Positions 17,187 to 56,333 of a stretch of DNA of 64,000 nt are shown here, in pieces. Source of the stretch: Halarcobacter sp. GTDB lineage: Bacteria > Campylobacterota > Campylobacteria > Campylobacterales > Arcobacteraceae. Below the pieces are notes generated by a model that saw only the letters and a list, made by a program, of their open reading frames with translations, was not told the DNA's origin and searched no databases. Where the stretch lies: the NCBI GenBank assembly GCA_963676565.1, contig OY781089.1, positions 1,088,001 to 1,152,000 on the forward strand, written 5' to 3'. Made by a program: the position numbers and the translations under genes. Positions within the stretch are counted from its first letter, which is position 1, and each line of letters starts with the position of its first letter.

Positions 17187-18407
17187 TTATATTTGTTTAA
17201 ATCTATAACCATTTTGTTTCAATTTTTCACGTATTAATTTTTGGTGTTCCTCACCTTTTGTTTCTAAGGCAATTGTAATTTGAGCCTCCCCAAATTCAAG
17301 TTTTATAGAGTCTCTATCATAATCTATTTGAACAATATTTGCTGAACATTCTTTAAAAATTTCGGTTAATCTAGTTAATGATCCTGGTTTATCAATTAAT
17401 TTGATAATCAAGTTCATTTTTCTATTTGATTTAACTAATCCTTTCTCAATAATTTGAGCAAGCATAGTTACATCAATATTTCCACCACTTACTATTGCAC
17501 AAACTTTTGAGTCTTCAAGTTCAATCTTCTCATGCATTATTGCAGCTGTTGCAACTGCACCAGCACCTTCTACAACAAGTTTATGCTTCTCAAGTAAAAA
17601 TAAAATAGCATTTGCAATCTCATTGTCACTTACTTCAACAATATCATCAACATAATCAATAATTATATCTAGAAGTTTTGGTGTTACATCCCTTACAGCA
17701 ATCCCATCAGCAATAGTTCTAACTGAAGTTGAATCAATTGGCATTTGTGAACGATAAGATTCTTTCATAGCCGCAGCTCCACTTGCAACTACACCAATAA
17801 TTTTTATATCTGGGTTTATTGATTTTGCAGCTATTGCAATACCTGAGATTAAACCACCTCCACCAATTGGAACAATAATTTGTTTTAAATCTTTTATCTC
17901 TTCTAAAACTTCTAAGGCAATTGTCCCTTGTCCTGCTATAACATCATCATCAGCAAAAGGGTGAATAAATTCACAATCATTTTCTTCAGCAAATTTATAT
18001 GCAGCTTCTTTAGCTTCATCAAAATTTTCACCTACTAAAACAACATTTGCACCATAAGATTTTACACCACTAACTTTTGTTAAAGGGGTTGCCTCTGGCA
18101 TAAAAATAGTTGCTTCAATATCAAAATATTTTGCAGCAAATGCTAAACCTTGAGCATGGTTTCCTGCACTTGCGGCAACTACACCCTTTTTCTTTTTATC
18201 TTCATTTAGTTTTGCAATTCTATTAAAAGCACCTCTTAATTTAAAACTTCCTGTTAGTTGAAGGTTGTCTTTTTTTAAATAGATTTCACTTCTAAAGGTT
18301 TCACTTAGAATTGGAGCTTTTGTAATTGGGGTATTATTAGCTACATTTTCTAAATTTTTCTTTGCTTCTTTTACATCATTTAAAGTAATCATATTTTTTC
18401 TTTTCAT
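17187..18407 (-). CDS. ilvA: Threonine ammonia-lyase with C-terminal ACT domain
   Basis: TGSFKLRGA, SAGNHAQG, GGGGL, SGGN; start may be the Met at 18392. Confidence 0.93.
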   Translation of the reverse strand: MKRKNMITLNDVKEAKKNLENVANNTPITKAPILSETFRSEIYLKKDNLQLTGSFKLRGAFNRIAKLNEDKKKKGVVAASAGNHAQGLAFAAKYFDIEATIFMPEATPLTKVSGVKSYGANVVLVGENFDEAKEAAYKFAEENDCEFIHPFADDDVIAGQGTIALEVLEEIKDLKQIIVPIGGGGLISGIAIAAKSINPDIKIIGVVASGAAAMKESYRSQMPIDSTSVRTIADGIAVRDVTPKLLDIIIDYVDDIVEVSDNEIANAILFLLEKHKLVVEGAGAVATAAIMHEKIELEDSKVCAIVSGGNIDVTMLAQIIEKGLVKSNRKMNLIIKLIDKPGSLTRLTEIFKECSANIVQIDYDRDSIKLEFGEAQITIALETKGEEHQKLIREKLKQNGYRFKQI

Positions 18408-42492: not shown

Positions 42493-43128
42493 ATGAAAAA
42501 AGCTATTGTAACTGGTTATTCTTCTGGAATTGGAAAAGCAATTTGTGAAATTTTAGAAGAAAATGATTACAAAGTTTTAAAGTTAAAATCAAGACTTGAA
42601 GATACTAAAGCACTAGAATCAGAAGTGAAAAAGCTATTAAAAGAAAATGAAATTGATTTGTTAGTTAATTGCGCTGGTCTTGGAATATTTAAACCCCATG
42701 AAGAGATTTCAATTCCAAAAATTCAAGAATTAATAAATATAAATCTTACTGCACCAATTATACTTTCAAGTTTACTTTTAAGAACTCTAAAAAAAACAAA
42801 AGGGCATATTATAAATATTGCTTCAATTGAAGCAACAAGGCATTCCAAATTTTCAGCACTTTACACGGCAACAAAATCAGGCCTTAGAAATTTTTCTTTA
42901 ACTTTATTTGAAGAGTTAAGAAAATCAGATGTTAAAGTTACTACAATTAATCCAGACCTTACTAAAACAAACTTTTTTGATGAGTTTAACTTTGAACCTA
43001 GCGAAAATAAAAACGCCCATCTCTTACCTCAAACAATTGCAAATACAGTTTTAGATATTTTAAATTTTGATGGGGTTATCACAGAAATCACTGTTCGTCC
43101 CCAGCGACTAGAGATTAAAAAAAAATAA
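42493..43128 (+). CDS. Short-chain dehydrogenase/reductase
   Basis: TGYSSGIG, NCAG, YTATK. Confidence 0.9.
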   Translation: MKKAIVTGYSSGIGKAICEILEENDYKVLKLKSRLEDTKALESEVKKLLKENEIDLLVNCAGLGIFKPHEEISIPKIQELININLTAPIILSSLLLRTLKKTKGHIINIASIEATRHSKFSALYTATKSGLRNFSLTLFEELRKSDVKVTTINPDLTKTNFFDEFNFEPSENKNAHLLPQTIANTVLDILNFDGVITEITVRPQRLEIKKK

Positions 43129-43191
43129 AAAAAATATTTTAAGTTATACAATTAAAGAATAATTTTTGTGTAATAAATGTACAAGAAATAC

Positions 43192-43220
43192 TTGACAATG
43201 TAAAAAAAAGTAGTTAAGAT
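43192..43220 (+). promoter_or_regulatory. Sigma70-type promoter of the ectoine cluster leader
   Basis: TTGACA (43192-43197), 17-bp spacer, TAAGAT (43215-43220). Confidence 0.75.
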
Positions 43221-43250
43221 TTACCTATATTTTTATAGGAGGCTACAAAG

Positions 43251-43400
43251 ATGTTATTTATTAATTGTTCAAAATTAAAACATTTTATTTGCTTAGCCTT
43301 AATTAAACTCTTTAGAACTTTCAAAATTAATGTAAGACCTGTAAAAGAGATTCAAAACTTACTAATCCAAGAAAAAAGCTTTATTTTAACTGCCATATAG
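43251..43400 (+). CDS. Putative 49-aa leader peptide
   Basis: AGGAGG at 43237-43242, ATG 43251, open to TAG 43398-43400: MLFINCSKLKHFICLALIKLFRTFKINVRPVKEIQNLLIQEKSFILTAI. Confidence 0.6.
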   Translation: MLFINCSKLKHFICLALIKLFRTFKINVRPVKEIQNLLIQEKSFILTAI

Positions 43401-43500
43401 ACCCTCGCAATTTATTTAGTGTGTAATAAATTGTAAGTCATTTAAATAATATATTTAAATATTTATTATTTAAATGACTTAGTAGGGTCTTTTTTATTTT
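43399..43500 (+). terminator. Branched terminator/attenuator-like structure before the first ectoine gene
   Basis: AGACCCT(43399-43405)/AGGGTCT(43484-43490) followed by a T tract, enclosing two hairpins including an 18-bp perfect IR (43434-43451/43464-43481). Confidence 0.65.
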
Positions 43501-43533
43501 AAAAAAATCAAAAATTATATTAAGGAAAAAATT

Positions 43534-44778
43534 ATGTTAAACGATAAAACAGTATTTGAAGAGAATGAATCAGAAATTAGAGCTTATTGTAGAGCAGTAC
43601 CAACTGTTTTTAAATCATCAAAAAATGCAATTATGATTGACGAAAATGATAAAGAATTTGTAGACTTTTTTGCAGGAGCTGGAGTTTTAAACTTTGGTCA
43701 CAATAATCCAAAAATGAAAGAAGCGGTAATAGAGTTTTTACAAAGGGATGGAGTAGTTCATTCCCTTGATATGTTTACAGATGTTAAAAGAGATTTTATT
43801 TCAACATTTGTTGAAACAGTTTTAAAGCCTAGAGGAATGGGTGATTATAAACTTCAATTTACAGGACCAACAGGAACAAATGCAGTTGAAGCAGCACTTA
43901 AACTTGCTAGAAAAGTAACTGGAAGAACAGAGATTGTAGCTTTCCATAGAGGTTTCCATGGTATGACTTTAGGTTCACTTGCTTGTACTGCAAATAATGC
44001 CTTTAGAAGCTCATCAGGAGTTCCTTTAAATAATGTTATTAGAGGAACATTTAATGACATGGAAGCTCTAGATAGAATGAGAGAACAAATGTTTGATGCA
44101 GGATCTGGGATGTTACCACCAGCTGGATTTATAGTAGAACCAGTACAAGCTGAAGGTGGTGTTAGGCCAGCAACAAAAGAGTGGCTTCAAGCAGTACAAA
44201 AACTTGCACGAGATACTGGAGCATTATTTATCCTTGATAGTATTCAATGTGGTAATGGTAGATGTGGAAGCTATTTCAGTTTTGATGATTTAGATGTTGA
44301 CCCAGATATTAATATTTGTGCAAAAGGTTTAGGTGGATTTGGTACACCAATTGGTATGTTAGTAAATAAACCAGAAATCGACAAAGCTTGGGGACCAGGA
44401 CAACATACTGGTACATTTAGAGGACAAGGTATCTCATTTGTAGCAGGTAAGGTTGCCTTAGAATATTTTAAAGATGAGGAGTTTAATAAAGAGACTATTA
44501 GAAAAGGTAAAGTGATTAGAACCTTACTTGATGAGATGAATGAAAAATATCCTCAAGTTACAGATATTAGACAAAAGGGGATGATGTTAGCAATAAACTT
44601 TGATAATGCGGCAACTGTTAAAGAGATTACTGGAAAATGTTACGAAAATGGTTTAATTATTGGAGCTTGCTCAACGGGTGAGATTATTAAATTTATTCCA
44701 CCTTTAACAATTGAAGATGAAGTTTTAGAAGAGGGACTAAAAAGATTTAAAGCTTCAGTTGAAGCTGTATTAGGTTAA
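43534..44778 (+). CDS. Diaminobutyrate aminotransferase, EctB-type (class III PLP)
   Basis: FEENESEIRAYCR..PTVF, DFFAGAG.LNFGHN, QFTGPTGTNAVEAALK, FHGMTLG, HTGTFRG. Confidence 0.88.
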   Translation: MLNDKTVFEENESEIRAYCRAVPTVFKSSKNAIMIDENDKEFVDFFAGAGVLNFGHNNPKMKEAVIEFLQRDGVVHSLDMFTDVKRDFISTFVETVLKPRGMGDYKLQFTGPTGTNAVEAALKLARKVTGRTEIVAFHRGFHGMTLGSLACTANNAFRSSSGVPLNNVIRGTFNDMEALDRMREQMFDAGSGMLPPAGFIVEPVQAEGGVRPATKEWLQAVQKLARDTGALFILDSIQCGNGRCGSYFSFDDLDVDPDINICAKGLGGFGTPIGMLVNKPEIDKAWGPGQHTGTFRGQGISFVAGKVALEYFKDEEFNKETIRKGKVIRTLLDEMNEKYPQVTDIRQKGMMLAINFDNAATVKEITGKCYENGLIIGACSTGEIIKFIPPLTIEDEVLEEGLKRFKASVEAVLG

Positions 44779-44918
44779 AAGCAACTCGTTGCTTTCTTTA
44801 GAATTTCTCAAAGAGAGTACAAGTACAAGGCTTCTTTAGATGAGATTTATTCTCATTGATAAAAGAAGTTAAAAAATATAGGTCCCTGAAAAAATGGGAC
44901 ATTTTTTAAGGAGAAATT

Positions 44919-46319
44919 ATGGGATATAGCTCAACACATTTTAAATCAATAAATCCATACAATGAAGAGATTGTATGTGAAGTACCAATGCATACAAAAG
45001 AACAGGCAAGAGAAATTATAGAAAATGCTCAAGAAGCATATGTTGGTGAGTGGATTAATACAAGTTATGAACAAAGAGCAAAGCTTTTAAATGCAGTTGC
45101 AAAAGAGATGAAAGATAACCTTGATTATTACGCTCTTCCTATGACTGAAGAGATGGGTAAACCTATTAATGAAGCAAGAGGGGAAGTTAATAAAGCTGCA
45201 TGGGCAGCAGAACACTATGCAAGTTTTGGAGAAGAGTATTTAAAAACTGAATACTTAGAATCAGATGCAACTGAAAGTTATGTTCAGTATTTACCCCTTG
45301 GAGTAACACTTGGAGTGTTACCTTGGAATGCACCTTTTTGGTTAGCTTTTAGATACTTAGCTCCTGCACTTATGTCTGGAAATACTTGTATTATGAAACA
45401 TGACTCACATACTCCATTATGTGCACTTAGAATAGTCGAAGCCTTTACTAAAGCAGGGTTTCCTACAAATGTTGTTCAAAATCTAATGGTAGGACATTCA
45501 TTACTTGAAGATGTAATTAGACATGAAAATGTAATGGGAGTTTCACTTACAGGTTCATCAAAAGCAGGTGCTGCCGTTGGAGCTATTGCTGGAAGTGAAA
45601 TTAAACCAGTTGTTTTAGAACTTGGTGGTAGTGACCCAGCTATTATTTTAGCAGATACCCAAGATTTAGAAAAAGCAGCTGATGTGGTTGTTTTATCAAG
45701 ATATATAAACGCTGGGCAATCTTGTATTGCTGCAAAAAGAATTATCGTTGAAGAGCCAATTTATGAAAAATTTATAGAACTTTTAAAAGAAAGGTTTGAG
45801 AAATTAAAACTTGGTGATCCTAAAGATGAGTCAACAACTATTGGACCAATAGCTAGACGTGAGTTAGTTGAAGAGATGCATGAGCAAGTTGATAGATCAG
45901 TTGCAGCAGGAGCTAGATTAGTTCTTGGTGGTCAAAGATTAGATGATATGCAAGGGTTTTTCTTCCCTGTGACTATTTTAGCTGATGTAGAACCTGGTAT
46001 GGTTGTTTCTTGCCAAGAAACATTTGGACCAATAGCATCCGTTATAAAAGTAATAGATGAAGAGGAAGCTATAAAAATAGCAAATGCAACAGATTATGGT
46101 TTAGGTGGTTCTGTTTGGACAGGGGATGTCGAAAAAGGTAAAAAAATAGCTTCAAGAATTGTAACAGGACAAGTTTCAATTAATGGAATAGTTAAATCAG
46201 ACCCAAGGCTTCCAAGTGGTGGAGTAAAAAAATCTGGACTTGGAAAGGAGTTAGGACCACATGGAATTAGAATGTTTGTAAATACTCAACAAGTTTGGGT
46301 AGGTCCAGTTAAAAGTTAA
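44919..46319 (+). CDS. NAD(P)-dependent succinate/aspartate-semialdehyde dehydrogenase (DoeC-like role)
   Basis: PWNAP, TGS, LELGGSDP, NAGQSC, ETFGP. Confidence 0.88.
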   Translation: MGYSSTHFKSINPYNEEIVCEVPMHTKEQAREIIENAQEAYVGEWINTSYEQRAKLLNAVAKEMKDNLDYYALPMTEEMGKPINEARGEVNKAAWAAEHYASFGEEYLKTEYLESDATESYVQYLPLGVTLGVLPWNAPFWLAFRYLAPALMSGNTCIMKHDSHTPLCALRIVEAFTKAGFPTNVVQNLMVGHSLLEDVIRHENVMGVSLTGSSKAGAAVGAIAGSEIKPVVLELGGSDPAIILADTQDLEKAADVVVLSRYINAGQSCIAAKRIIVEEPIYEKFIELLKERFEKLKLGDPKDESTTIGPIARRELVEEMHEQVDRSVAAGARLVLGGQRLDDMQGFFFPVTILADVEPGMVVSCQETFGPIASVIKVIDEEEAIKIANATDYGLGGSVWTGDVEKGKKIASRIVTGQVSINGIVKSDPRLPSGGVKKSGLGKELGPHGIRMFVNTQQVWVGPVKS

Positions 46320-46334
46320 GTTTTGGAGAAGAAA

Positions 46335-47522
46335 ATGAATAAAACAAAACTTGCCTTTACTAAAAAGGAATATATTCAAAGGGTTAAAAGAGTTAAATCT
46401 TTAATGCAACAAAGGCGAATTGACGTCTTAGTTGCAACTGACCCAGGAAACATGAATTGGCTAACTGGTTATGATGGGTGGTCATTTTATGTTCATCAAG
46501 GGGTAATTATCTCATTAGATCATGAAGAACCTATTTGGTTTGGAAGACTTATGGATGTGAATGCAGCATTACTTAGATGTTACATGAGTAAAGAGAATAT
46601 GATTGGTTATCCTGAAATGTATGTACAAAATCTAGATGAGCATCCAATGACATGGATTGGAGAAAATATTTTCAGAAAAAATAAATGGGAAAAATGTGTT
46701 ATTGCAACTGAAAGGGACAATTACTACTATTCTGCAGAAGCTCATTTTAGATTAACTGCAACTTTACCAAATGCAACATTTGTAAATGCCAATAATCTAG
46801 TAAATTGGGTTAGAGGTAAAAAGTCAGCAAAAGAGATTGAGTATATGAAAATTGCTGGAAGAATTACTGAAAAGATTCATCAAAGAGTACTTGATATTGT
46901 AAGACCTGGTATTCCAAAATCCCATGTAGTTTCTCAAATTTATGAAACAGCAATTGCGGGAGTTGATGGTTATGGGGGAGATTATCCTTCAATCGTACCT
47001 CTACTTCCCTCAGGAAAAGAAGCATCAGCATCTCATATTACTTGGGATGATAGCCCTTTTAAAAGAAATGAAGCAACATTTTTTGAGATATCTGGGTGTT
47101 ATAAAAGATACCATGCTCCTATGTCAAGAACAATTTATATGGGAAAACCAAATCAAAAATTTCTTGATGCAGAAAAGGCATTGCAAGAAACAATAGAAGC
47201 AGGACTTGAAATGGCAAAGCCAGGAAATACAACTGCTGATATTGCAAATGCAGCCCAAAAAGTTATGAATAAATACGGTATTGATAGAAACAATGCAAGA
47301 TATGGATATCCAATTGGAGTTAGTTATCCACCCGATTGGGGTGAGCGAACTTGTAGTTTAAGAAGTACAGATTTAACAGTTCTTGAACCGGGTATGACCT
47401 TTCATTTTATGCCAGGGATTTGGCAAGAGGATTGGGGAGTTGAGATTACAGAAAGTATTCATATTACTAAAGATGGGGTAGAAACTTTTTGTAATTTTCC
47501 AAGACAATTATTTCTAAAGTGA
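46335..47522 (+). CDS. doeA: Ectoine hydrolase DoeA/EutD (M24 family)
   Basis: MNWLTGYDGWSFYVHQ, GGDYP, YPPDWGERT, GMTFHFMPG.W..DWG.EITESI. Confidence 0.9.
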   Translation: MNKTKLAFTKKEYIQRVKRVKSLMQQRRIDVLVATDPGNMNWLTGYDGWSFYVHQGVIISLDHEEPIWFGRLMDVNAALLRCYMSKENMIGYPEMYVQNLDEHPMTWIGENIFRKNKWEKCVIATERDNYYYSAEAHFRLTATLPNATFVNANNLVNWVRGKKSAKEIEYMKIAGRITEKIHQRVLDIVRPGIPKSHVVSQIYETAIAGVDGYGGDYPSIVPLLPSGKEASASHITWDDSPFKRNEATFFEISGCYKRYHAPMSRTIYMGKPNQKFLDAEKALQETIEAGLEMAKPGNTTADIANAAQKVMNKYGIDRNNARYGYPIGVSYPPDWGERTCSLRSTDLTVLEPGMTFHFMPGIWQEDWGVEITESIHITKDGVETFCNFPRQLFLK

Positions 47523-47613
47523 CACTAAATATAGGGGGTGTATCTATAAAAAAGCTTATATTTAAAACCAGACAGAGAAAAAGCGATAAAACAAACAAAG
47601 AAAGGAATTTGAT

Positions 47614-48621
47614 ATGAAATTATTTAAAGGATTGGTAATAGCAGGTTTAATTACTGCTACAAGTTTGAGTGCAGCAACATGGAAATATGCTTTTGGTGAA
47701 GGTACAAGTGACCCTCAAGGTATTTATGCAACTGCATTTAAGAGTTTTATAGAGGATAATTCAAGAAATAAAATAGAACTATATAAGGTTGGGTCTTTAG
47801 GTGAAGAAACTGACATGATGGAGCAAACAAGAGCTGGTTTACTTCATTTCTTAGGTCAATCAACAGGATATATGGGTGGAACTATTCCTGAGATGGATGT
47901 TTTTACAGTTCCTTATGTGATGCCTACAGATACAAAACAATTGGATTATTTCTTTAAAAACTCAAAAGTAATTAATGAGATGCTTCCAACAATTTTCCAT
48001 AAACATGGATTAGAATTATTATCTATTTTCCCTGAAGGAGAGATGGCTGTTACAACTTTTGAAGAGTTTCATTCACCTGCAGATTTAAAGGGTAAAAAGA
48101 TGAGAGTTATGCCAGGTTCTCCTATTTTGGTTGAAACATATAAAGCTTTTGGAGCATCTCCTCAACCTATGTCATGGGGTGATTTAGTTGGTGCACTTAA
48201 AACAGGAATGGTTGATGGACAAGAAAACCCAACAGTATGGATTGAAGCATATGGTTTAGATGATTTAACAAAAGTTTTAACATATACAGGACATGGACAC
48301 TTTAATGCATCAGTTAGTGCAAATAAAAAGTTTTATGACGGATTATCAAAAAGAGATAAAAAATTAGTTCAAGAAGCTGCTAAGTTTGCCCATAAAACAA
48401 TTTTACAAGAGGCTCAAAAACTTGATGCTTATGGATTAGGAAGAATTGTAAGAACAAATCCTAGTTATAAAATTGTAACTTTAACTGAAGATGAAAGAAA
48501 AGTATTTAAAGAAGAAGCAAAAGCTGTTCAAGAATCATTCGCTTCAAAAAGTGATTCAAATAAAAAAATTATGACTCAAATGATGAAAGATTTAGCCGAG
48601 GCTGAAGCAAATGCTAAATAA
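47614..48621 (+). CDS. TRAP substrate-binding protein, TeaA/UehA-like
   Basis: Signal peptide, WKYA..E, PEGEM, LKTGMVDGQENP; in the ectoine cluster. Confidence 0.85.
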   Translation: MKLFKGLVIAGLITATSLSAATWKYAFGEGTSDPQGIYATAFKSFIEDNSRNKIELYKVGSLGEETDMMEQTRAGLLHFLGQSTGYMGGTIPEMDVFTVPYVMPTDTKQLDYFFKNSKVINEMLPTIFHKHGLELLSIFPEGEMAVTTFEEFHSPADLKGKKMRVMPGSPILVETYKAFGASPQPMSWGDLVGALKTGMVDGQENPTVWIEAYGLDDLTKVLTYTGHGHFNASVSANKKFYDGLSKRDKKLVQEAAKFAHKTILQEAQKLDAYGLGRIVRTNPSYKIVTLTEDERKVFKEEAKAVQESFASKSDSNKKIMTQMMKDLAEAEANAK

Positions 48622-48707
48622 TTTTTAATATATAGTAATCCACTTTTAGTGGATTTACTATAGTAGATTACAAAGTGTTGTAACCTACTATAGTAAAAGG
48701 AAGAATT

Positions 48708-49277
48708 ATGGACACTAGTACAAAGAACCCAATACTAAAAGCTTTAGATTTTGTAGACAAAATGCTAAGCAAATTTGAAGGTATTATGCTTGCTTTAGGT
48801 GTAATTGCAATGGCAATAATAACTATACTTTCAGTTATTACAAGATTTATTTTTAATGATGCCTTAACAATAACAGATGAACTAAATATGATTTTTATTG
48901 TAATAGTTACCTTTGCTGGTCTAAGTTACGCAGCTAGAAATGGAAGACATATTAGAATGTCTGCAATATATGATGCTCTTCCAACAAAAATTAGAAAAGT
49001 CTTTATGATATTTATCTCTTTAATCACTTCAATTTTTATGTTCATATTAGCAAAATATTCATATGGATATATAGTTGAGGTATATGAAAGTGGAAGAATA
49101 TTGCCAGCAATTGGAATACCAGTATTTTATGTATATTTATGGGTTCCTATTGGTTTTACTGTTACAGGGCTTCAATATTTTTTTACAGTTATAAAAAATA
49201 TTAGAGAAGATGATGTTTTTCTTTCAACAAAGGTAAGAGATGGATACAGCGATAGTAACAACGATATGGAAGTATAA
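48708..49277 (+). CDS. TRAP small permease DctQ (TeaB-like)
   Basis: TFAGLSYAARNGRHIRMSAIYDALP. Confidence 0.88.
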   Translation: MDTSTKNPILKALDFVDKMLSKFEGIMLALGVIAMAIITILSVITRFIFNDALTITDELNMIFIVIVTFAGLSYAARNGRHIRMSAIYDALPTKIRKVFMIFISLITSIFMFILAKYSYGYIVEVYESGRILPAIGIPVFYVYLWVPIGFTVTGLQYFFTVIKNIREDDVFLSTKVRDGYSDSNNDMEV

Positions 49278-49286
49278 GGAAGAAAG

Positions 49287-51047
49287 ATGCAAAAGTTTAT
49301 AAAACAATTTTTAATAATTTCTACAATTTTAGTTGGATTTTCCATATCTGCTTTTTCAAAAGAGAATATAATTTTATACTTTGATGAGATTGCTATTGAG
49401 GATAAAGTGAATCTTTCTATTTATGGTTCAGCAGAATCAGAAGATTTTTCTTCCCATAAATGGCAAATTATAAATGTAAAAGTAAAAGGTAGTAAAAATA
49501 AAGAGCTTCTTTTTAGTACTGAGACTGATAAAAAAGGTTTTTGGGAAGTTGAGAATATAGATATCAAAGATTTTAGTGATGGAAAGCTTAATATTGAAGT
49601 TAAAATGATGACAGAAGATGGTGAAGTTTTGGCTTCTTTAGTAGATAAAAACACTATAAAAGATACAAGTTTTAAAATAACTGAATTTCTAAAAAATCAT
49701 TTATCAGCATCAATTTTTTCATTAATGGTGATTTTATTACTACTTGGTTTTCCTATGATGATTCCATTAATTGCAGGAACCTCATTGGGGGTTTTCTTAC
49801 TTTTTGATGGAGATTTTTCAAAAATGGAGTTTCTAATTCAGCAGATGATGGGAGGAATTAGACCAGCTGCATTAATTGCAGTTCCTATGTTTATTCTATC
49901 TGCTGATATTATGACTAGGGGGAAAAGTGCAGAAAAGCTCATTGATTTAGTAATGGCTTTTGTAAGACATATTAAGGGTGGACTTGCAGTTAGTACAGCA
50001 GGAGCTTGTGCTATGTTTGGTGCTGTTTCTGGTTCTACTCAGGCAACTGTTGTTGCAATTGGATCTCCTTTAAGACCAAGACTTAAAAAAGGTGGATATA
50101 AAGAATCATTTATTTTAGCTCTTATAGTAAATTCAAGTGATATCGCCTTTTTAATCCCTCCAAGTATTGGGATGATTATTTATGGAATTGTTGCTAAAAC
50201 ATCTATTCCTGAACTTTTTATTGCAGGGATTGGACCTGGATTATTAATCCTTTTTCTATTTTCAATTTATAGTATTATTTATGCATATAGACATAATATC
50301 CCAACTGAACCAAAAGCTACATGGAAAGAAAGGGGTAGTGCTTTAGTAAATGCCTTATGGCCTTTAGGTTTCCCTGCAATTATTGTTGGGGGTATTTTTG
50401 GAGGAATCTTCTCTCCAACTGAAGCTGCTGCTGTTAGTGTAGCATATGCAATTTTCTTAGAAGGTATTGTTTTTAAAACAATGAAATTAAAAGATTTGTA
50501 TGCAACTGCTAAATCAACTGGATTAGTAACAGCTGTTGTATTTATATTAGTTGGAGCTGGAGCTGGATTTGCATGGGTTTTATCATTTGCTCAAATTCCA
50601 CAACAAATTTTAAGTTCTATTGGTATTACTGAAATGGGACCTTATCAAGTTTTATTTGTAATCTCAATCGCTTTTTTTGTTGGGTGTATGTTTGTTGATC
50701 CAATTGTAGTTATATTAGTTTTAGTTCCTATTTTTGCACCAATTGTAAATTCAGTTGGATTAGATCCAGTTTTAGTGGGAACTATTATTACACTTCAAGT
50801 AGCAATTGGTTCTGCAACTCCACCTTTTGGTTGTGATATTTTTACAGCTATTGCTGTATTTAAAAGACCATATTTAGAAGTAATAAAAGGAACACCACCA
50901 TTTATTTTTATTCTTTTAAGTGTATCTGTTGCTTTAATTTTCTTTCCAGATATTGCACTATTTTTAAGGGATGTTGCCTTTAGAGAATTAAATGTAATCG
51001 ACTATTTCCAAAATCTATTTGGTTTTAGTGCTCAAGTAATAGAATAA
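49287..51047 (+). CDS. TRAP large permease DctM (TeaC-like) with extra N-terminal soluble domain
   Basis: LLLLGFPMMIPL, IAFLIPPSIG, SATPPFG; about 135 extra N-terminal residues. Confidence 0.9.
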   Translation: MQKFIKQFLIISTILVGFSISAFSKENIILYFDEIAIEDKVNLSIYGSAESEDFSSHKWQIINVKVKGSKNKELLFSTETDKKGFWEVENIDIKDFSDGKLNIEVKMMTEDGEVLASLVDKNTIKDTSFKITEFLKNHLSASIFSLMVILLLLGFPMMIPLIAGTSLGVFLLFDGDFSKMEFLIQQMMGGIRPAALIAVPMFILSADIMTRGKSAEKLIDLVMAFVRHIKGGLAVSTAGACAMFGAVSGSTQATVVAIGSPLRPRLKKGGYKESFILALIVNSSDIAFLIPPSIGMIIYGIVAKTSIPELFIAGIGPGLLILFLFSIYSIIYAYRHNIPTEPKATWKERGSALVNALWPLGFPAIIVGGIFGGIFSPTEAAAVSVAYAIFLEGIVFKTMKLKDLYATAKSTGLVTAVVFILVGAGAGFAWVLSFAQIPQQILSSIGITEMGPYQVLFVISIAFFVGCMFVDPIVVILVLVPIFAPIVNSVGLDPVLVGTIITLQVAIGSATPPFGCDIFTAIAVFKRPYLEVIKGTPPFIFILLSVSVALIFFPDIALFLRDVAFRELNVIDYFQNLFGFSAQVIE

Positions 51048-51069
51048 TTTTAAGTAAAAAGGAGATGTG

Positions 51070-51525
51070 ATGTTTAAAAAAATATTAGTACCAACTGATG
51101 GTTCAGAACAAGCAAATAAGGCTTTGGATTTAGCTTGTAAAATGGCCATGGAAAATGATCAAACTCAGATAAATATATTGTCAGTTTTTAGACATCATAG
51201 TTTTACAGAAGCTTCATTAGCAATGCTTCCAAGACAAGTAGATGATGAAGCTGCAAATTTAGATGAGGTTATGAGAACATATGCAAAGGAGTTAGTTGCC
51301 AAATCAAAAGAGCTTGCTATTGAGTATGGATTAGAAAAACATAGGGTAAGAGGTTTTATTAGAATTGGGCAAGTTGCAAAAGAGATTTTAGATTTTATAA
51401 AAGAGGAAGATGTTGATTTAATTATAATTGGGAAACAAGGAAGAGGAGATTTAAGTGGTTATCTTTTAGGTGGAGTTTCCCATAAAGTTACAGGTCTTGC
51501 AAAAATCCCAGTAATGGTTGTATGA
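51070..51525 (+). CDS. Universal stress protein (TeaD-like)
   Basis: KILVPTDGS, IIGKQGRG...LLGGVSHKV; follows the TRAP genes. Confidence 0.9.
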   Translation: MFKKILVPTDGSEQANKALDLACKMAMENDQTQINILSVFRHHSFTEASLAMLPRQVDDEAANLDEVMRTYAKELVAKSKELAIEYGLEKHRVRGFIRIGQVAKEILDFIKEEDVDLIIIGKQGRGDLSGYLLGGVSHKVTGLAKIPVMVV

Positions 51526-51680
51526 TGATTTTATTTGATATTAGAAAAATCAATAGTATCTATTGCTTTAATAGAGTCTATTCAAAGGTAGCTTACTCGT
51601 CCAGATTATAAAAGGATTAAAGTTTTTAATCCTGCAATATTTTATAAATAATTTAAATAAATTCTTAATCGGACAAAAAA

Positions 51681-52841
51681 ATGAAAAATAAAACAATGAA
51701 AGCTATGGTTTTAACAGGCCATGGAGATATAAATAAAATAAAGTACAAAGATGTAGCAATACCAAAACCAAAAAAAGGTGAGGTATTAGTTGAAGTTCAT
51801 GCCACTGCCAAAAATAATACTGATAGAAAAGCTAGAATTGGTGTTTATGGGGTGGATGATAAAAATAAAGATGAAATTACATCCTTTGATATGAGTGGGG
51901 ATAACACTTTTACCTTTCCTAAAATTCAAGGTGCAGATATAGTTGGAACAATTGTAGCAGTTGGTTCAGAAGTTTCAACTAGTAGAATTGGAAAAAAAGG
52001 TTTAATAGATTTTAATATCTATTTAGACCTTGAAAAAAATGATAATTTAAATCTAACTCCTGATTATATAGGACATGGTTGTGATGGAGGCTTTGCTGAA
52101 TATGTAGTAGTTCCCGATGAAAATTTTTATAATATGTCAAATCTTGATATAAGTGATGCCCAACTTGCAAGTTTAGGTATGTGTTCATATCAAACAGGAC
52201 TTCGAATGCTAAATGCTTCAAGGGTAAAAAAAGGAGATTTAGTATTAGTTTCTGGGGCAAGTGGTGGAGTTGGAACTGCTTTAATTCAAATGTGTAGAAT
52301 CTTAGGGGCAATTCCTTATGCCTTAAGTAGTAAAGAAAAAGAGGCGCAACTTCTAAAAATAGGAGCCGAAAAAGTAATTGATAGAGCAGATATAAATAGC
52401 TTAAAACAAAGAGTTTTAGAAGCAACAAATGGAAAAGCTATAGATGCAGTTATGGATATGGTTGGTGGAGAATACACAAATGTTTTCTTAGATTGTATGA
52501 TTACTGATATGAAAAATAAAAGTGACTATCCAAGACTTAGTATTGCAGGAGCTAGTGGAGATAATCTAACACAAATTATGTGGTCAAAGATATATCTATA
52601 TCAAATAGAGATTCATGGAGTTTCCCATGGAACTAGAAATGAAGTAAAACAATTAATGAAATGGATTAGAGAGGGGAAATTAAAACCTATGCTTCATGCC
52701 ACATTTAAGCTTTCTGAGCTTCATAAGTGTGAAGAGTATTTTGCAAATAGGTCAAATAATTATCTTGGAAAAGTAGTAGTAATTCCTGATTCAAAATGGG
52801 ATGAATATGGGAAAGAGTTTGCTCAAAAGGATTCTTTATGA
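51681..52841 (+). CDS. MDR-family NAD(P)-dependent oxidoreductase (probably Zn-free)
   Basis: NNTD, IQGAD (no GHE), GGFAEY, SGASGGVG, GKVVV. Confidence 0.85.
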   Translation: MKNKTMKAMVLTGHGDINKIKYKDVAIPKPKKGEVLVEVHATAKNNTDRKARIGVYGVDDKNKDEITSFDMSGDNTFTFPKIQGADIVGTIVAVGSEVSTSRIGKKGLIDFNIYLDLEKNDNLNLTPDYIGHGCDGGFAEYVVVPDENFYNMSNLDISDAQLASLGMCSYQTGLRMLNASRVKKGDLVLVSGASGGVGTALIQMCRILGAIPYALSSKEKEAQLLKIGAEKVIDRADINSLKQRVLEATNGKAIDAVMDMVGGEYTNVFLDCMITDMKNKSDYPRLSIAGASGDNLTQIMWSKIYLYQIEIHGVSHGTRNEVKQLMKWIREGKLKPMLHATFKLSELHKCEEYFANRSNNYLGKVVVIPDSKWDEYGKEFAQKDSL

Positions 52842-53881
52842 GTTCAAAAGAGCATAAAATAGGTCTAATTGATACCCACGCTGGAGGTGATGTTAGTAGA
52901 ATAGTTTTTTCTGGAGTTAAAAAACTTCCAGGGAAAACTGTAAGAGAGCAAATGGAATACTTACAAAAAAAGGCAGATGGTTTAAGAAAAACATTACTTT
53001 TTGAGCCATATGGAATCCCTGAGATGTCAATAGATTTAGTTGTTCCAGCTTGCGAAAGCGAAGCAGTTGCAGGATATATTATTATGGAAGTGATGGGATA
53101 TCCTATCTATTCTGGGTCTAATACTTTATGTACAGCAACTGCGGTTATTGAAAAAGGATTAGTAGCTAAAAAAGAGGGAATAACAAATTTTAAACTTGAA
53201 TCTCCTGCAGGTTTAGTTGATATTGAAGCAAATATAGTAAATGGTGTTGTTGAATCTGTAACTTGTCAAGGATTACCAAGTTATATTCATTCTTATAAAC
53301 AGATAATTAATATACCAAATTTGGGAGAAGTTACTTATTCAATAGCCTATAGTGGTGGTTTTTATGTTTTAGTTGAAGCCTCGCAACTTGGTTTTAAATT
53401 AAATAAAAGTGAAGAGGAAGAGTTATCTAAAACTGCATATATGATAATTGAAGAAATTAGAAAAAAACAGGATTTTAAACACTATAGTTTAGGTGATGTG
53501 GGACCTATTCCTTTTTTACATTTTATGGGTGAAGTTACTAAAAAACAGGAAGGTTTATATAGCTCACCTTCAACTACTTATGTACACCCAGGGGTTATTT
53601 GTAGAAGTACAACAGGAACAGGAACTTCAGCTAGACTTGCATATTTATATTATGAAGGAAAGATAAAACAAGGGGATAGATTAGAGACTATTTCCTTAAG
53701 AGATACAAGATTTATTGGAGTTTTTGAAAGTGTTGAAAAACAAAAAAACTACAATGTTATTAACAACAAAATTTCAGGTAAAAGTTATATCATAGGTAAA
53801 CAAGATATTTATATTAATTGTGATGATCCAATGTTAAATCATCTTAATAGTTTGAATGAATTAACAGATCTACTTGAATAA
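52838..53881 (+). CDS. Proline racemase superfamily protein with Ser/Thr catalytic pair (dehydratase-type)
   Basis: DTHAGG..SR, EPYG, YSGSN, CRSTTGTGTSAR. Confidence 0.85.
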   Translation: MSSKEHKIGLIDTHAGGDVSRIVFSGVKKLPGKTVREQMEYLQKKADGLRKTLLFEPYGIPEMSIDLVVPACESEAVAGYIIMEVMGYPIYSGSNTLCTATAVIEKGLVAKKEGITNFKLESPAGLVDIEANIVNGVVESVTCQGLPSYIHSYKQIINIPNLGEVTYSIAYSGGFYVLVEASQLGFKLNKSEEEELSKTAYMIIEEIRKKQDFKHYSLGDVGPIPFLHFMGEVTKKQEGLYSSPSTTYVHPGVICRSTTGTGTSARLAYLYYEGKIKQGDRLETISLRDTRFIGVFESVEKQKNYNVINNKISGKSYIIGKQDIYINCDDPMLNHLNSLNELTDLLE

Positions 53882-53899
53882 GATAAAAAGGAGAATTAT

Positions 53900-55060
53900 A
53901 TGTTAAAAAAATTTGAAGAGGTTGTAAACTTTGCAATAGATTTTAGACACAATTTACATAAACACCCAGAATTAAAATGGGAAGAAACTAATACAGCAAA
54001 ATCTATTAGAGATATTTTAGATGAGTATGATATTCCTTATAAAACCTATGCAAATACAGGAACTTGTGGACTTTTAGCACAAGATAAAAAAGGCCCTCAT
54101 ATTGCAATTAGAGGTGATATTGATGCCCTTGCATTAGTAGAAAAAACAGATGTACCATATAAGTCAACAAAAGAGCAATGTATGCATGCTTGTGGGCATG
54201 ATGGTCACACAGCAACACTAATGACGGCTGCCATTTGGTTAAAACAAAATGAACATCTATTAGAAAACCCAGTAACACTTTTATTTCAACCAGCAGAAGA
54301 GGGTGGTCATGGAGCTAAGAAAATGATAGAAGAGGGTTGTTTAGATGGTGTTGATATGATTTTTGGTTGGCATAATTGGCCTGCTATTAAATTTGGTCAA
54401 GCTGTATGTCCCGATGGTACTGTAATGGCTGGAAATGGAACTTTTCATATAAATATAAAAGGAAAGGGTGGACACTCTTCCCAACCTGAATTATGTCATG
54501 ACCCAGTTTTAGCAGCAAGTGCTATGACATTAAATCTCCAACAAATAATAAGTAGACAAGTCTCTCCACAAGATAGTGCAGTTGTTTCAGTAACTTCAAT
54601 TGATGGGAAAAGTGATTTAACTACAATCCCTGATTTTGTAAAACTTGAAGGAAGTATTAGAGTGCCAACTGATGAGTTAAAGAGTTTTGTTTTTAATAAA
54701 ATAGATGAGATTGTAAAAGCAACTGCAAAAACTTATAACGTAGAGGTTGATGTTGAATTAAGAGATAGGTATGGAGCAACAATAAACCACAAAACCCAAG
54801 CGGAAATGGTTAGAGAAGAGTTAAAAAATCAATTGGGTGAAAATTGGGAAAGTGATATTCCAACACCTATTATGGCAAGTGAAGATTTTAGCTATTATTT
54901 AAACACAATACCTGGAGCTTTTGCACTTATTGGAAGTGATGATGGGGTTGAAAAACATCAAAAAGCTTGTCATAATGTTCATTATGATTTTAATGATAAA
55001 TTAATATCTCCAGTTAGTAAAACTTTAATGAGATTAGCTGGTTACAAAGGAGAGTTTTAG
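53900..55060 (+). CDS. M20 amidohydrolase (putative N-acetyl-diaminobutyrate deacetylase)
   Basis: RHNLHKHPEL, RGDIDAL, MHACGHDGH, FQPAEEG, SEDF. Confidence 0.85.
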   Translation: MLKKFEEVVNFAIDFRHNLHKHPELKWEETNTAKSIRDILDEYDIPYKTYANTGTCGLLAQDKKGPHIAIRGDIDALALVEKTDVPYKSTKEQCMHACGHDGHTATLMTAAIWLKQNEHLLENPVTLLFQPAEEGGHGAKKMIEEGCLDGVDMIFGWHNWPAIKFGQAVCPDGTVMAGNGTFHINIKGKGGHSSQPELCHDPVLAASAMTLNLQQIISRQVSPQDSAVVSVTSIDGKSDLTTIPDFVKLEGSIRVPTDELKSFVFNKIDEIVKATAKTYNVEVDVELRDRYGATINHKTQAEMVREELKNQLGENWESDIPTPIMASEDFSYYLNTIPGAFALIGSDDGVEKHQKACHNVHYDFNDKLISPVSKTLMRLAGYKGEF

Positions 55061-55069
55061 GAGATACAA

Positions 55070-55540
55070 TTAGGCAATTGGCCTATTGTATCTCATAAAA
55101 TATATAGATGGAATTGCAAGTCCAAAGCCAATTCCCCCTAAAATAGTAATTGTTTTTAAACCATTTTCAACAAAAATAGTAATAAGTTCAGGGGTAACTC
55201 CATGGGCACTCATATTTATAAGATTTATAACAGCATTAAAAGCATATGTTCCGGGAATCAAAGGTATAATTGAAGCAATCGTATAAACAGGTCTTGGAAT
55301 AATATATTTTCTTGACCAATATAGAGCAACTAAACCAACTATTGTAGAAGCTAAAAATGTTGCAAGTTCAATACTAAAATTTATATCCATTAAAATAGTT
55401 CTTGAAGTATATGCAATTGCTCCACCAAATCCACAATATATAAGTGTATGTTTAGGAACATTAAAAACCATACCAAAGCCAATAGCTGGAATGGCAGCAA
55501 AAATTGCATTTATAATATAATTAATTAATTCAGTACCCAT
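55070..55540 (-). CDS. ThrE/YjjB family exporter small subunit
   Basis: GFGMVFNVP, IIPLIPG..A. Confidence 0.88.
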   Translation of the reverse strand: MGTELINYIINAIFAAIPAIGFGMVFNVPKHTLIYCGFGGAIAYTSRTILMDINFSIELATFLASTIVGLVALYWSRKYIIPRPVYTIASIIPLIPGTYAFNAVINLINMSAHGVTPELITIFVENGLKTITILGGIGFGLAIPSIYFMRYNRPIA

Positions 55541-55541
55541 A

Positions 55542-56333
55542 TTACCAACCTTTTAAGTCTAAAATTACAAAGGCAAAAACAATCCCAATTGCAGTTGCTA
55601 CTGTTAATAAAACAGCTTGCATCCAACGACCCCAACCCATGGCTAGATAACCTTTTACAGCATCTAAAACAGAATTGATAAAAGGGAAACCAGGAGCAAG
55701 TAAAATTACACTTGATGATAAAGCAATATCTATCTTATCACTTAATTCATATATATGGGCAAGTCCAGAGATTATTGTTGCCACAAAAGCAGTTGCAGCA
55801 AAGGTTATAATCATCACAAACTTTCTTTTTGCTAATTCTTGTCTAGTAAACATAGCTACACTTGATGCAACAAAAGTGACAAAAAATGAGATTAAATCTG
55901 CTCCGTTTAAGTATGCAAAAGAGGCACATGATAAACCAATCATAAAAACTACAAGCCATCTATTATAATAGTTTGCTTGAATCTCTTTCATTGTTTTTAA
56001 TACAAAACTTACATCTTTTTTTTCTTTTTCTGTTTGATGACACATCCTTTGAACATCACAAACAATAGACATGTTTATTGGTTTATGGTATGCCCTTCTT
56101 GTTGTTGTAACAGAGTGTGTTTGATTGTTTGTTAGTGTTGTTAAAACAATAGCCGAAGGGATTAGAGAAAGTTCAACGGAATCAACACCTAAAGCCTTTC
56201 CTAATCTTTGAGCAGTTTGTTCTATAAGTCTACTTTCTGCACCATATTCAAGCATTAATACAGCAGCTTTAATTACAGCCCTTGTAATCTTTGTTTGTTC
56301 TTCGTAAGTTAGTTGTGTTTGTATCTCTTCCAT
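55542..56333 (-). CDS. ThrE/YjjP family exporter large subunit
   Basis: YGAESRLIE, GLSCASFA, LAPGFP.INSV.D. Confidence 0.9.
   Translation of the reverse strand: MEEIQTQLTYEEQTKITRAVIKAAVLMLEYGAESRLIEQTAQRLGKALGVDSVELSLIPSAIVLTTLTNNQTHSVTTTRRAYHKPINMSIVCDVQRMCHQTEKEKKDVSFVLKTMKEIQANYYNRWLVVFMIGLSCASFAYLNGADLISFFVTFVASSVAMFTRQELAKRKFVMIITFAATAFVATIISGLAHIYELSDKIDIALSSSVILLAPGFPFINSVLDAVKGYLAMGWGRWMQAVLLTVATAIGIVFAFVILDLKGW

Follow-up and report, generated by a model that had tools for sequence, protein, structure and literature searches.

We analysed a 64,000-nt stretch of the Halarcobacter sp. genome (contig OY781089.1; hereafter the window), in which two overlapping genes, encoding a medium-chain dehydrogenase/reductase (MDR) and a proline-racemase-family (PRS) protein, lie inside a gene cluster for ectoine catabolism. 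The host genome is a single contig of 3.34 Mb with ~28% G+C and is 99.97% complete. The pair is predicted to consist of a PRS-type hydroxyectoine dehydratase and an MDR-type dehydroectoine reductase, an assignment to which we give about an even chance. A fuller account, which we would put just short of even, is that a hydroxyectoine dehydratase arose within the proline racemase superfamily when the prolyl-nitrogen-binding Asp was lost and, together with a zinc-free MDR, converts 5-hydroxyectoine to ectoine with the ring still closed, by a route non-homologous to EutABC. In organisms without the doe genes the pair would remodel the osmolyte pool, and the rhizobial ‘adh’ of solved structure (4J6F) would be the reductase of the EutABC route. 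The analysis shows how the genes are built, which residues occupy the active site, that the pair is conserved and embedded in the operon, and that it has phyletic and clade-level links to ectoine genes; the substrate, both reactions and the cofactor are inferred. The folds of both proteins are settled by sequence matches to Pfam and the PDB.

51681..52841, + strand: MDR oxidoreductase without zinc ligands (386 aa; Pfam ADH_N, ADH_zinc_N), proposed to reduce the dehydrated intermediate with NAD(P)H
52838..53881, + strand: PRS protein (347 aa; PF05544, E 1.5e-82), the proposed hydroxyectoine dehydratase

The TGA stop codon of the MDR gene and the ATG start codon of the PRS gene share positions 52838-52841 (...ctttATGAgtt...). 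The ATGA overlap described in an earlier note on this DNA is therefore real; the order it implied, with the PRS gene first, is not, as the MDR gene is upstream.

An altered proline racemase active site

The Pro_racemase match (PF05544) spans residues 11-332 of the PRS protein and positions 2-320 of the 325-position profile, and 17 PDB relatives are found at E ≤ 1e-3. The two catalytic motifs, which the earlier note gave as YSGSN and CRSTTGTG, do read GYPIYSGSNT (containing Ser92) and VICRSTTGTG (containing Thr259). They align with the catalytic positions MCGH and DRSPTGTG of 6r76, and with MSGSN and DRSPTGTG of the 3-hydroxyproline dehydratase 4k7g. The Ser/Thr pair is in itself no novelty, since this dyad already marks a characterised cluster of trans-3-hydroxy-L-proline dehydratases (t3HypDs), in which Ser90 is catalytic, Asn93 positions Ser90 and Thr256 is non-catalytic (Zhao 2014). 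Judged from the alignments, the distinctive features are instead Cys255, in place of the Asp of the DRSP motif, and Thr258, in place of its Pro (CRSTT versus DRSPT). Orthologues with 61-90% identity occur in Arcobacteraceae, Halomonas/Vreelandella, Marinobacter, Marinospirillum and Alloalcanivorax, among others; GYPIYSGSNT and VICRSTTGTGTSARLA are unchanged in all 20 that were aligned, and all 20 keep Cys255. In the enzymes described by Zhao 2014 the prolyl nitrogen is coordinated by Asp232 and His90, and the replacement of this Asp by Cys throughout the orthologues argues against a plain proline-type substrate.

The same active site suggests another explanation, which we consider unlikely. 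The pair could be a self-contained route from some other cyclic beta-hydroxy imino acid (trans-3-hydroxy-L-proline (t3Hyp), an N-substituted hydroxyproline or hydroxypipecolate) to proline or a proline-like solute. The MDR protein would then be a new Delta1-pyrroline-2-carboxylate (Pyr2C)-like reductase, and the operon position would reflect a shared ‘compatible-solute salvage’ regulon. The Ser/Thr dyad with SGSN is a signature of characterised t3HypDs (4K7G; Zhao 2014) and the best NCBIfam model for the PRS protein is a t3HypD, but the t3HypD equivalog scores fall far under their cut-offs (235.4 bits versus 550 for NF047722, and 149.9 versus 540) and the prolyl-nitrogen-binding Asp is missing, as just described. 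That Thr-type PRS enzymes work with an imine reductase is, as the earlier note held, established (Zhao 2014, Watanabe 2014), and the known t3Hyp pathway is itself a dehydratase plus a reductase (Watanabe 2014). However, the known Pyr2C reductases described by Zhao 2014 belong to the OCD or MLD2 families. The neighbours of the window PRS gene are MDR and doe genes, with no OCD/MLD2 Pyr2C reductase or hydroxyproline catabolic gene in this neighbourhood. The host does have PutA for the use of proline, but the named carriers of the pair are marine or halophilic bacteria and one Tsukamurella, rather than typical hydroxyproline degraders.

Among 50%-identity cluster representatives (P0121-P0162), the window subfamily falls within a broad PRS-family clade with ‘MGYPx[FY]SGSN’. 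In the second motif of this clade, Cys, Trp, Ser or Phe stands where the prolyl-nitrogen-binding Asp would be, and Thr or Ser takes the second catalytic position. No function reported in the PRS papers cited here covers the clade, and the text of Zhao 2014 consulted here names neither a tested member of the window subfamily nor inactive clusters.

The MDR partner and its relatives

The MDR protein comprises GroES-like and Rossmann domains (PF08240, PF00107, PF13602) and carries GASGGVG. Aligned to the zinc-dependent alcohol dehydrogenase 2eer, it has Asn for the Cys of ‘gvChsd’ and ‘GAD’ for ‘GHE’, and it has not kept the Cys-rich loop of the structural zinc; the proposal that it lacks the catalytic-zinc motif thus holds. 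The top NCBIfam matches, all far under cut-off, are the PIG3 quinone oxidoreductase family and crotonyl-/acryloyl-CoA reductases, and the putative cofactor preference is for NAD(P)H. The best PDB relative is 4j6f, a ‘putative alcohol dehydrogenase’ (41.6% identity, E 4e-82), and the next PDB match is at 1e-21.

The genomic setting of this relative ties the MDR clade to ectoine. On pSymB of Sinorhizobium meliloti 1021, the 4j6f gene is the last in asnC-ssd-atf-MDR, which is divergent from ehuR-ehuABCD-eutABCDE, and Rhizobium johnstonii pRL12 and R. sophoriradicis are annotated with the same asnC-ssd-atf-MDR / eut arrangement. An MDR of 52% identity is the last gene of the series ehuCD-eutA-eutB-cyclodeaminase-doeA-doeB-ssd-atf-MDR in Paracoccus yeei; a Nitratireductor MDR homologue has no such eut-cluster placement. 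A maximum-likelihood tree built from 26 MDRs places the eut-linked P. yeei protein as sister to the clade of high-identity PRS-paired MDRs (99/100) and groups the low-identity PRS-paired MDRs (98/96) with the rhizobial eut-linked ones, so that the eut-linked and PRS-paired contexts interleave. This link of the clade to alphaproteobacterial eut clusters also counts against a route for another imino acid. The ‘oxidoreductase’ of the S. meliloti ectoine locus is reported to be ectoine-inducible, its role being described as undefined (Czech 2018, PMC5924519).

Searched against PLSDB, the MDR protein matches 182 plasmid records (Rhizobium 97, Sinorhizobium 74). DoeA matches 336 (Rhizobium 126, Sinorhizobium 85), with Klebsiella, Shinella and Leisingera records that are without the MDR. 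The Klebsiella records (28 plasmids, H82-H84) carry a ~58%-identical DoeA annotated as ectoine hydrolase, and no MDR homologue at E ≤ 1e-50.

A conserved two-gene module

One genome per prokaryotic species was scanned with two subfamily-specific peptide patterns. About 424 relatives matched, and these species-level genomes belong to halophilic and marine bacteria. The best 80 loci were analysed, and in 77 of them an MDR orthologue (57-70% identity) lies upstream of the PRS gene on the same strand. The two are directly adjacent in 76 of the 77 and separated by 1.96 kb in the other (L020). The remaining three loci (L046, L047, L073) hold MDR fragments: in L046 and L073 the MDR is present only as fragments and the PRS gene is intact, and in L047 (Halomonas sulfidaeris AP019514, 8836-9965) the MDR is split over several frames, possibly by frameshifts or assembly errors. 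A more divergent, overlapping MDR-PRS pair (41% and 47% identity) with the motif LCRSPTGTG occurs on a Tsukamurella plasmid (L106). The CRSPTGTG form is also found in a 48%-identical PRS protein of four Marinobacter-family genomes, with an MDR gene alongside in two.

The ectoine cluster of the window

Open reading frame calling with Pfam and NCBIfam delimits ten + strand genes at 43534-55060, in the order doeD-doeC-doeA-TRAP (three genes)-usp-MDR-PRS-doeB2. The pair is embedded in an ectoine catabolic operon, with DoeA, DoeB2, DoeC- and DoeD-like proteins, a TeaA/UehA-type TRAP transporter and a universal stress protein. Besides the pair, the features are:

43534..44778, + strand: doeD-like diaminobutyrate--2-oxoglutarate transaminase, the first gene of the cluster (NF006733, 550 bits, cut-off 438; Pfam Aminotran_3)
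44919..46319, + strand: doeC-like aldehyde dehydrogenase of the aspartate/succinate-semialdehyde dehydrogenase type (Pfam Aldedh, E 4e-139)
46323..47522, + strand: doeA ectoine hydrolase (TIGR02993, 587 bits, slightly under the 613 cut-off)
47614..51047, + strand: TRAP transporter, with binding protein 47614-48621, small permease 48708-49277 and large permease 49287-51047 (Pfam DctP, DctQ, DctM)
51067..51525, + strand: universal stress protein, TeaD/Usp type (Pfam Usp, E 1.3e-27)
51526..51680, + strand: AT-rich spacer of 155 bp, 5' of the MDR-PRS pair (read directly)
53900..55060, + strand: doeB2, M20-type N(2)-acetyl-L-2,4-diaminobutanoate deacetylase, the last gene of the cluster (NF038260, 620.6 bits, cut-off 550)
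55071..55085, both strands: terminator-like hairpin between doeB2 and the convergent ThrE-family genes (pattern scan)

The assignment of DoeA is supported by synteny with the DoeB2, DoeC-like and DoeD-like genes, and every Arcobacteraceae DoeA copy scores 571-593 bits with TIGR02993. The top NCBIfam models of the doeC-like gene are of the succinate-semialdehyde dehydrogenase type, under their cut-offs, and the gene is syntenic across all Arcobacteraceae doe clusters. Against the PDB, the TRAP binding protein matches 3gyy, 2vpn and 3fxb, which we take to be TeaA and UehA, at E 1e-86 to 1e-88, the following match being at 4e-37. By this TeaA/UehA-like binding protein, the cluster has a transporter of the ectoine/hydroxyectoine type; UehABC is specific to ectoine and 5-hydroxyectoine (Hermann 2021).

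The 3' end of the PRS gene is separated from the doeB2 start by an 18-bp gap. A promoter scan was uninformative in the AT-rich DNA of the window (67 sites versus 66.5 expected), and the terminator pattern scan is weak (8 terminator-like sites versus 6.0 expected). In four RNA runs linked by species label only to a DNA sample that contains the stretch, 0, 0, 2 and 0 reads fell on 43000-55500, a count uninformative on expression.

If hydroxyectoine is taken up, how is its hydroxyl group removed? The earlier note had taken EutB and EutC to be missing, and this agrees with the genome, where a profile search found no match to EutC (TIGR02992). EutA (TIGR02990) has no match either, a weak negative since control genomes also gave none. 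The only EutB-like open reading frame (17187-18407, − strand; 268 bits, cut-off 413) was considered as the missing EutB and rejected, as it is IlvA (TIGR01127, 505 bits versus a cut-off of 379). The host makes ectoine, as EctC is present, and EctD was not found in its genome; hydroxyectoine would thus be an imported nutrient.

Several further features of the cluster were noted. The TRAP large permease (DctM subunit) has 586 aa, and its DctM profile match begins only at residue 146; the preceding ~145 residues (49287-49720) resemble a signal or anchor with an extra domain behind it, and have a weak ‘tandem large repeat’ match (E 3.5e-4). The long form is kept at five other loci (L006, L097-L099, L102; ~1.75 kb by tblastn), and L005, L007, L100 and L103 match over ~1.27 kb only. 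G+C content is 0.30-0.35 at 44001-56000, versus mostly 0.24-0.30 in the other bins of the window (one 2-kb bin has 0.34), and Arcobacteraceae DoeA scores resemble those of Nitrincola-family copies (~580-600 bits), not Halomonas copies (~650). Both observations would fit a cluster acquired from a gammaproteobacterial donor. A ThrE-family (threonine/serine exporter-like) two-gene pair on the − strand (55070-56333) converges on the doeB2 end, and also adjoins the cluster in the closest relative (L097).

Co-occurrence with ectoine catabolic genes

Four family samples, 484 genomes in total, were searched for co-occurrence; related genomes are not independent, so Fisher values overstate support and the contrasts are indicative only. 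Of the 151 Arcobacteraceae genomes, 12 have a PRS orthologue (at least 65% identity) and 22 a full-length DoeA. All 12 PRS carriers have DoeA, with the PRS gene within ~7 kb, and a PRS orthologue is found in none of the 129 Arcobacteraceae genomes without full-length DoeA. The position of 12 of 12 copies within doe clusters is a further point against a route for another imino acid. DoeA is also present in 47 of 50 PRS-positive versus 39 of 61 PRS-negative Halomonadaceae genomes, and in 6 of 6 PRS-positive versus 27 of 115 PRS-negative genomes of the Nitrincola family, with the genes unlinked in both families. The co-occurrence with doeA proposed in the earlier note thus stands for these three families; it fails in the Marinobacter family (0 of 31 carriers), to which we return below.

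The Arcobacteraceae clusters that were fetched vary around a common core. It reads doeD-doeC-doeA-doeB2 at four loci and doeB2-doeD-doeC-doeA at three; the TRAP genes are added at two loci, and TRAP plus usp at L093. MDR-PRS is inserted between usp and doeB2 at seven fetched loci besides the window, and a second order, TRAP-usp-MDR-PRS-doeB2-doeD-doeC-doeA, is seen at two. The TRAP-usp-MDR-PRS-doeB2 block is therefore retained in two gene orders, and the pair always adjoins doeB2. The L093 cluster equals that of the window minus exactly MDR-PRS, its usp and doeB2 tblastn matches lying 33 bp apart.

Could the two genes be a mobile cassette with an unrelated function, which an ancestor of some Arcobacteraceae happened to acquire between usp and doeB2? 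The sister cluster L093 without the pair, the 155-bp spacer ahead of it and the stand-alone pairs of other taxa would fit such an event. We nevertheless regard it as very improbable: no mobile-element genes flank the pair within the window, the pair has stayed beside doeB2 in both gene orders, it accompanies DoeA, without linkage, in two further families, and the MDR clade is independently linked to eut clusters.

Observations that weigh against hydroxyectoine

Three sets of observations weigh against the hydroxyectoine assignment. The first comes from the gammaproteobacteria, where the pair stands alone with variable neighbours, none of them conserved beyond the MDR gene (L009-L084; likewise Tsukamurella, L106). 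Within 10 kb, 0 of 76 gammaproteobacterial loci have DoeA, DoeD, DoeB2 or a close (>30% identical) TRAP homologue. An aldehyde dehydrogenase of only 26-28% identity is common in these neighbourhoods, and a distant match to a TRAP permease turns up in a few. In the Marinobacter-family sample, 31 of 101 genomes carry a PRS orthologue, and neither DoeA (E ≤ 1e-100) nor DoeB (E ≤ 1e-50) is found in any of the 101. DoeB2 occurs in nine of these genomes, every one of them PRS-negative, and so in 0 of the 31 carriers. EctD shows no association in this family either (13 of 31 PRS-positive versus 25 of 70 PRS-negative genomes). Even at E ≤ 1e-40, DoeA finds no counterpart in Marinobacter oulmenensis, Marinospirillum celere or Alloalcanivorax mobilis. 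The Marinobacter carriers are left unexplained by the hydroxyectoine assignment; the route for another imino acid best explains these 31 carriers without any doe gene, for which its product would be directly useful.

Two side results concern the same family. The nine DoeB2-positive genomes (G159, G161, G164, G183, G191, G198, G218, G225 and G238), all above the curated cut-off, may carry an alternative DoeA_2-type hydrolase missed at E ≤ 1e-100. EctD lies ~9 kb from the PRS gene in two genomes, a proximity dismissed as chance; at L109, the one such locus that was annotated, the intervening genes are unrelated (an ABC transporter and an acyl-CoA ligase).

The second set concerns EutC. Mutual exclusivity with eutBC, which the earlier note put forward as a test, fails: an EutC-like gene is present in 30 of 50 PRS-positive versus 33 of 61 PRS-negative Halomonadaceae genomes, and members of the MDR clade lie beside eutABC in Sinorhizobium, Rhizobium and Paracoccus. 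Among DoeA-positive Halomonadaceae the figures are 30 of 47 PRS-positive versus 33 of 39 PRS-negative. The scores of these EutC-like genes, 340-413 bits, fall short of the curated cut-off; in the examples checked, such as G355 and G326, they lie ~15 kb or less from DoeA. Since the alphaproteobacterial MDR coexists with EutABC, the MDR protein is not simply a substitute for EutC. The third is physiological. Ruegeria pomeroyi grown on hydroxyectoine accumulates the hydroxy derivative of N-alpha-acetyl-L-2,4-diaminobutyrate (hydroxy-alpha-ADABA), which indicates that in this organism the ring opens before the hydroxyl group leaves (Hermann 2021).

Ring opening ahead of hydroxyl removal, together with the MDR clade in four alphaproteobacterial clusters that have EutABC and no PRS gene, speaks for a further alternative, in which the pair acts at another step of hydroxyectoine or ectoine metabolism. 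For instance, the MDR protein may reduce an alpha,beta-dehydro intermediate derived from hydroxy-ADABA or hydroxy-2,4-diaminobutyrate (hydroxy-DABA), a role it might also have beside EutB in rhizobia, and the PRS protein may epimerise or dehydrate a different intermediate or a side product. A ring-opened substrate had already been allowed for in the earlier note. This alternative seems doubtful to us, as the characterised PRS enzymes in Zhao 2014 and Watanabe 2014 all use cyclic imino acids, and the Ser/Thr dyad is known, among the enzymes of Zhao 2014, only from dehydratases and not from two-base epimerases. Moreover, the pair is present in genomes that have neither DoeA nor DoeB for ring opening.

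In addition to their own equivalogs, EutB and EutC of S. meliloti pSymB (L105:2766-4837) match BhcB (E 4e-54), a beta-hydroxyaspartate dehydratase, and BhcD (E 1.5e-52), an iminosuccinate reductase. If they work in a like manner, EutB/EutC might remove water from an open-chain beta-hydroxy amino acid (hydroxy-DABA or beta-hydroxyaspartate) and then reduce the imine so formed, a role that would fit the order of events in R. pomeroyi.

Proposed reaction

In the assignment we favour, the two genes of the pair would form one catabolic module that takes the 5-hydroxyl group off imported 5-hydroxyectoine while the ring is closed. The PRS protein would act as a cofactor-independent dehydratase, with Ser92, positioned by Asn95, taking the C4 alpha-proton and the 5-hydroxyl leaving by syn elimination. 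The product would be 2-methyl-1,6-dihydropyrimidine-4-carboxylate (‘dehydroectoine’). The zinc-free, quinone-oxidoreductase/enoyl-reductase-like MDR would then use NAD(P)H to reduce the C4=C5 enamine, or its imine tautomer, to L-ectoine. DoeA, DoeB2, DoeD and DoeC, all encoded in the operon, would carry ectoine on to aspartate. In gammaproteobacterial carriers without doe genes, the ectoine produced may be kept as an osmolyte; this is the weakest part of the model.

Stereochemistry is consistent with the first step. trans-3-Hydroxy-L-proline is (2S,3S), and Cahn-Ingold-Prelog analysis gives equal priorities at the alpha and beta carbons of 5-hydroxyectoine and 3-hydroxyproline. As 5-hydroxyectoine is (4S,5S) (Czech 2018, PMC5924519), it is configured as trans-3-hydroxy-L-proline, with the alpha-hydrogen and beta-hydroxyl syn. 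The t3HypD reaction is a one-base syn dehydration (Zhao 2014), and the shared configuration and this chemistry together lead to the proposed abstraction of H-4 by Ser92 with loss of the 5-hydroxyl. The changes Asp to Cys and Pro to Thr would suit a ring nitrogen that is part of a methyl-substituted amidinium. The proposed intermediate is not itself new, as 2-methyl-1,6-dihydropyrimidine-4-carboxylate was earlier suggested as the EutB product, to be followed by NAD(P)H reduction (Czech 2018, PMC5924519).

We also considered the pair working in the biosynthetic direction, from ectoine to hydroxyectoine. This was rejected because an NAD(P)+-driven desaturation of ectoine would be unfavourable and hydroxyectoine has an established route through EctD.

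Relation to known enzymes

With the Ser/Thr-type t3HypDs (4K7G; Zhao 2014), the window PRS protein shares PF05544, the Ser of SGSN with its positioning Asn, the Thr at the second position and a full-length alignment (E 8e-49), and the chemistry expected is likewise abstraction of an alpha-proton with syn loss of a beta-hydroxyl. They differ in the second motif, as described, and in the residue before the Ser, which is Met in t3HypDs and Tyr in the window. They differ also in their company: an OCD/MLD2 partner and hydroxyproline genes in the one case, an MDR partner and ectoine genes in the other. The LhpH/LhpI pathway for t3Hyp (Watanabe 2014) follows the same logic of a PRS-family dehydratase and then an NAD(P)H reductase that regenerates a non-hydroxylated cyclic amino acid. 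However, it employs a Cys-Thr dehydratase and an OCD/mu-crystallin reductase, and is induced by hydroxyproline.

EutA, EutB and EutC of S. meliloti and R. pomeroyi have in common with the pair the proposed job (removal of the 5-hydroxyl), the intermediate originally proposed and the kind of operon place. They are not homologous to it, EutB being a pyridoxal-phosphate-dependent, threonine-dehydratase-like protein and EutC an OCD-family one. They differ further in that the hydroxyl of R. pomeroyi is seemingly removed after ring opening, and EutC-like genes often coexist with the pair. The exact EutB/EutC reactions and the enzymology of hydroxyl removal are stated to be unknown (Hermann 2021). 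The S. meliloti ‘oxidoreductase/adh’ (4J6F) belongs to the same clade as the window MDR and shares an unusual insert before the ‘FPxIQG’ segment, but is paired with ssd-atf and EutABC and has no PRS neighbour.

Full-text literature searches returned no paper that joins ectoine or hydroxyectoine with a proline racemase or hydroxyproline dehydratase. The text consulted here of a recent survey of ectoine catabolic clusters, for which genomes were chosen by EutD, EutE and EutB, makes no mention of PRS/MDR genes (Boas Lichty 2026, PMC13188858). A pathway of PRS dehydratase plus reductase is thus of a known kind, and what is new, in this genomic proposal, is the altered active site, the partner family and the proposed substrate.

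Implications

Ectoines are widely synthesised protectants against osmotic stress and also serve as nutrients (Hermann 2021; Boas Lichty 2026, PMC13188858); they are industrial products as well. How bacteria remove the hydroxyl group of 5-hydroxyectoine is an acknowledged gap. If the assignment is correct, the pair would provide the first enzymatically defined route for this step and a new activity within the proline racemase superfamily, and would give a function to the solved, unannotated structure family of 4J6F. It would explain which ectoine degraders also use hydroxyectoine, and would offer an enzymatic means to interconvert two commercial solutes. The finding also points to the broad, uncharacterised ‘MGYPx[FY]SGSN’ clade of PRS proteins that lack the Asp.

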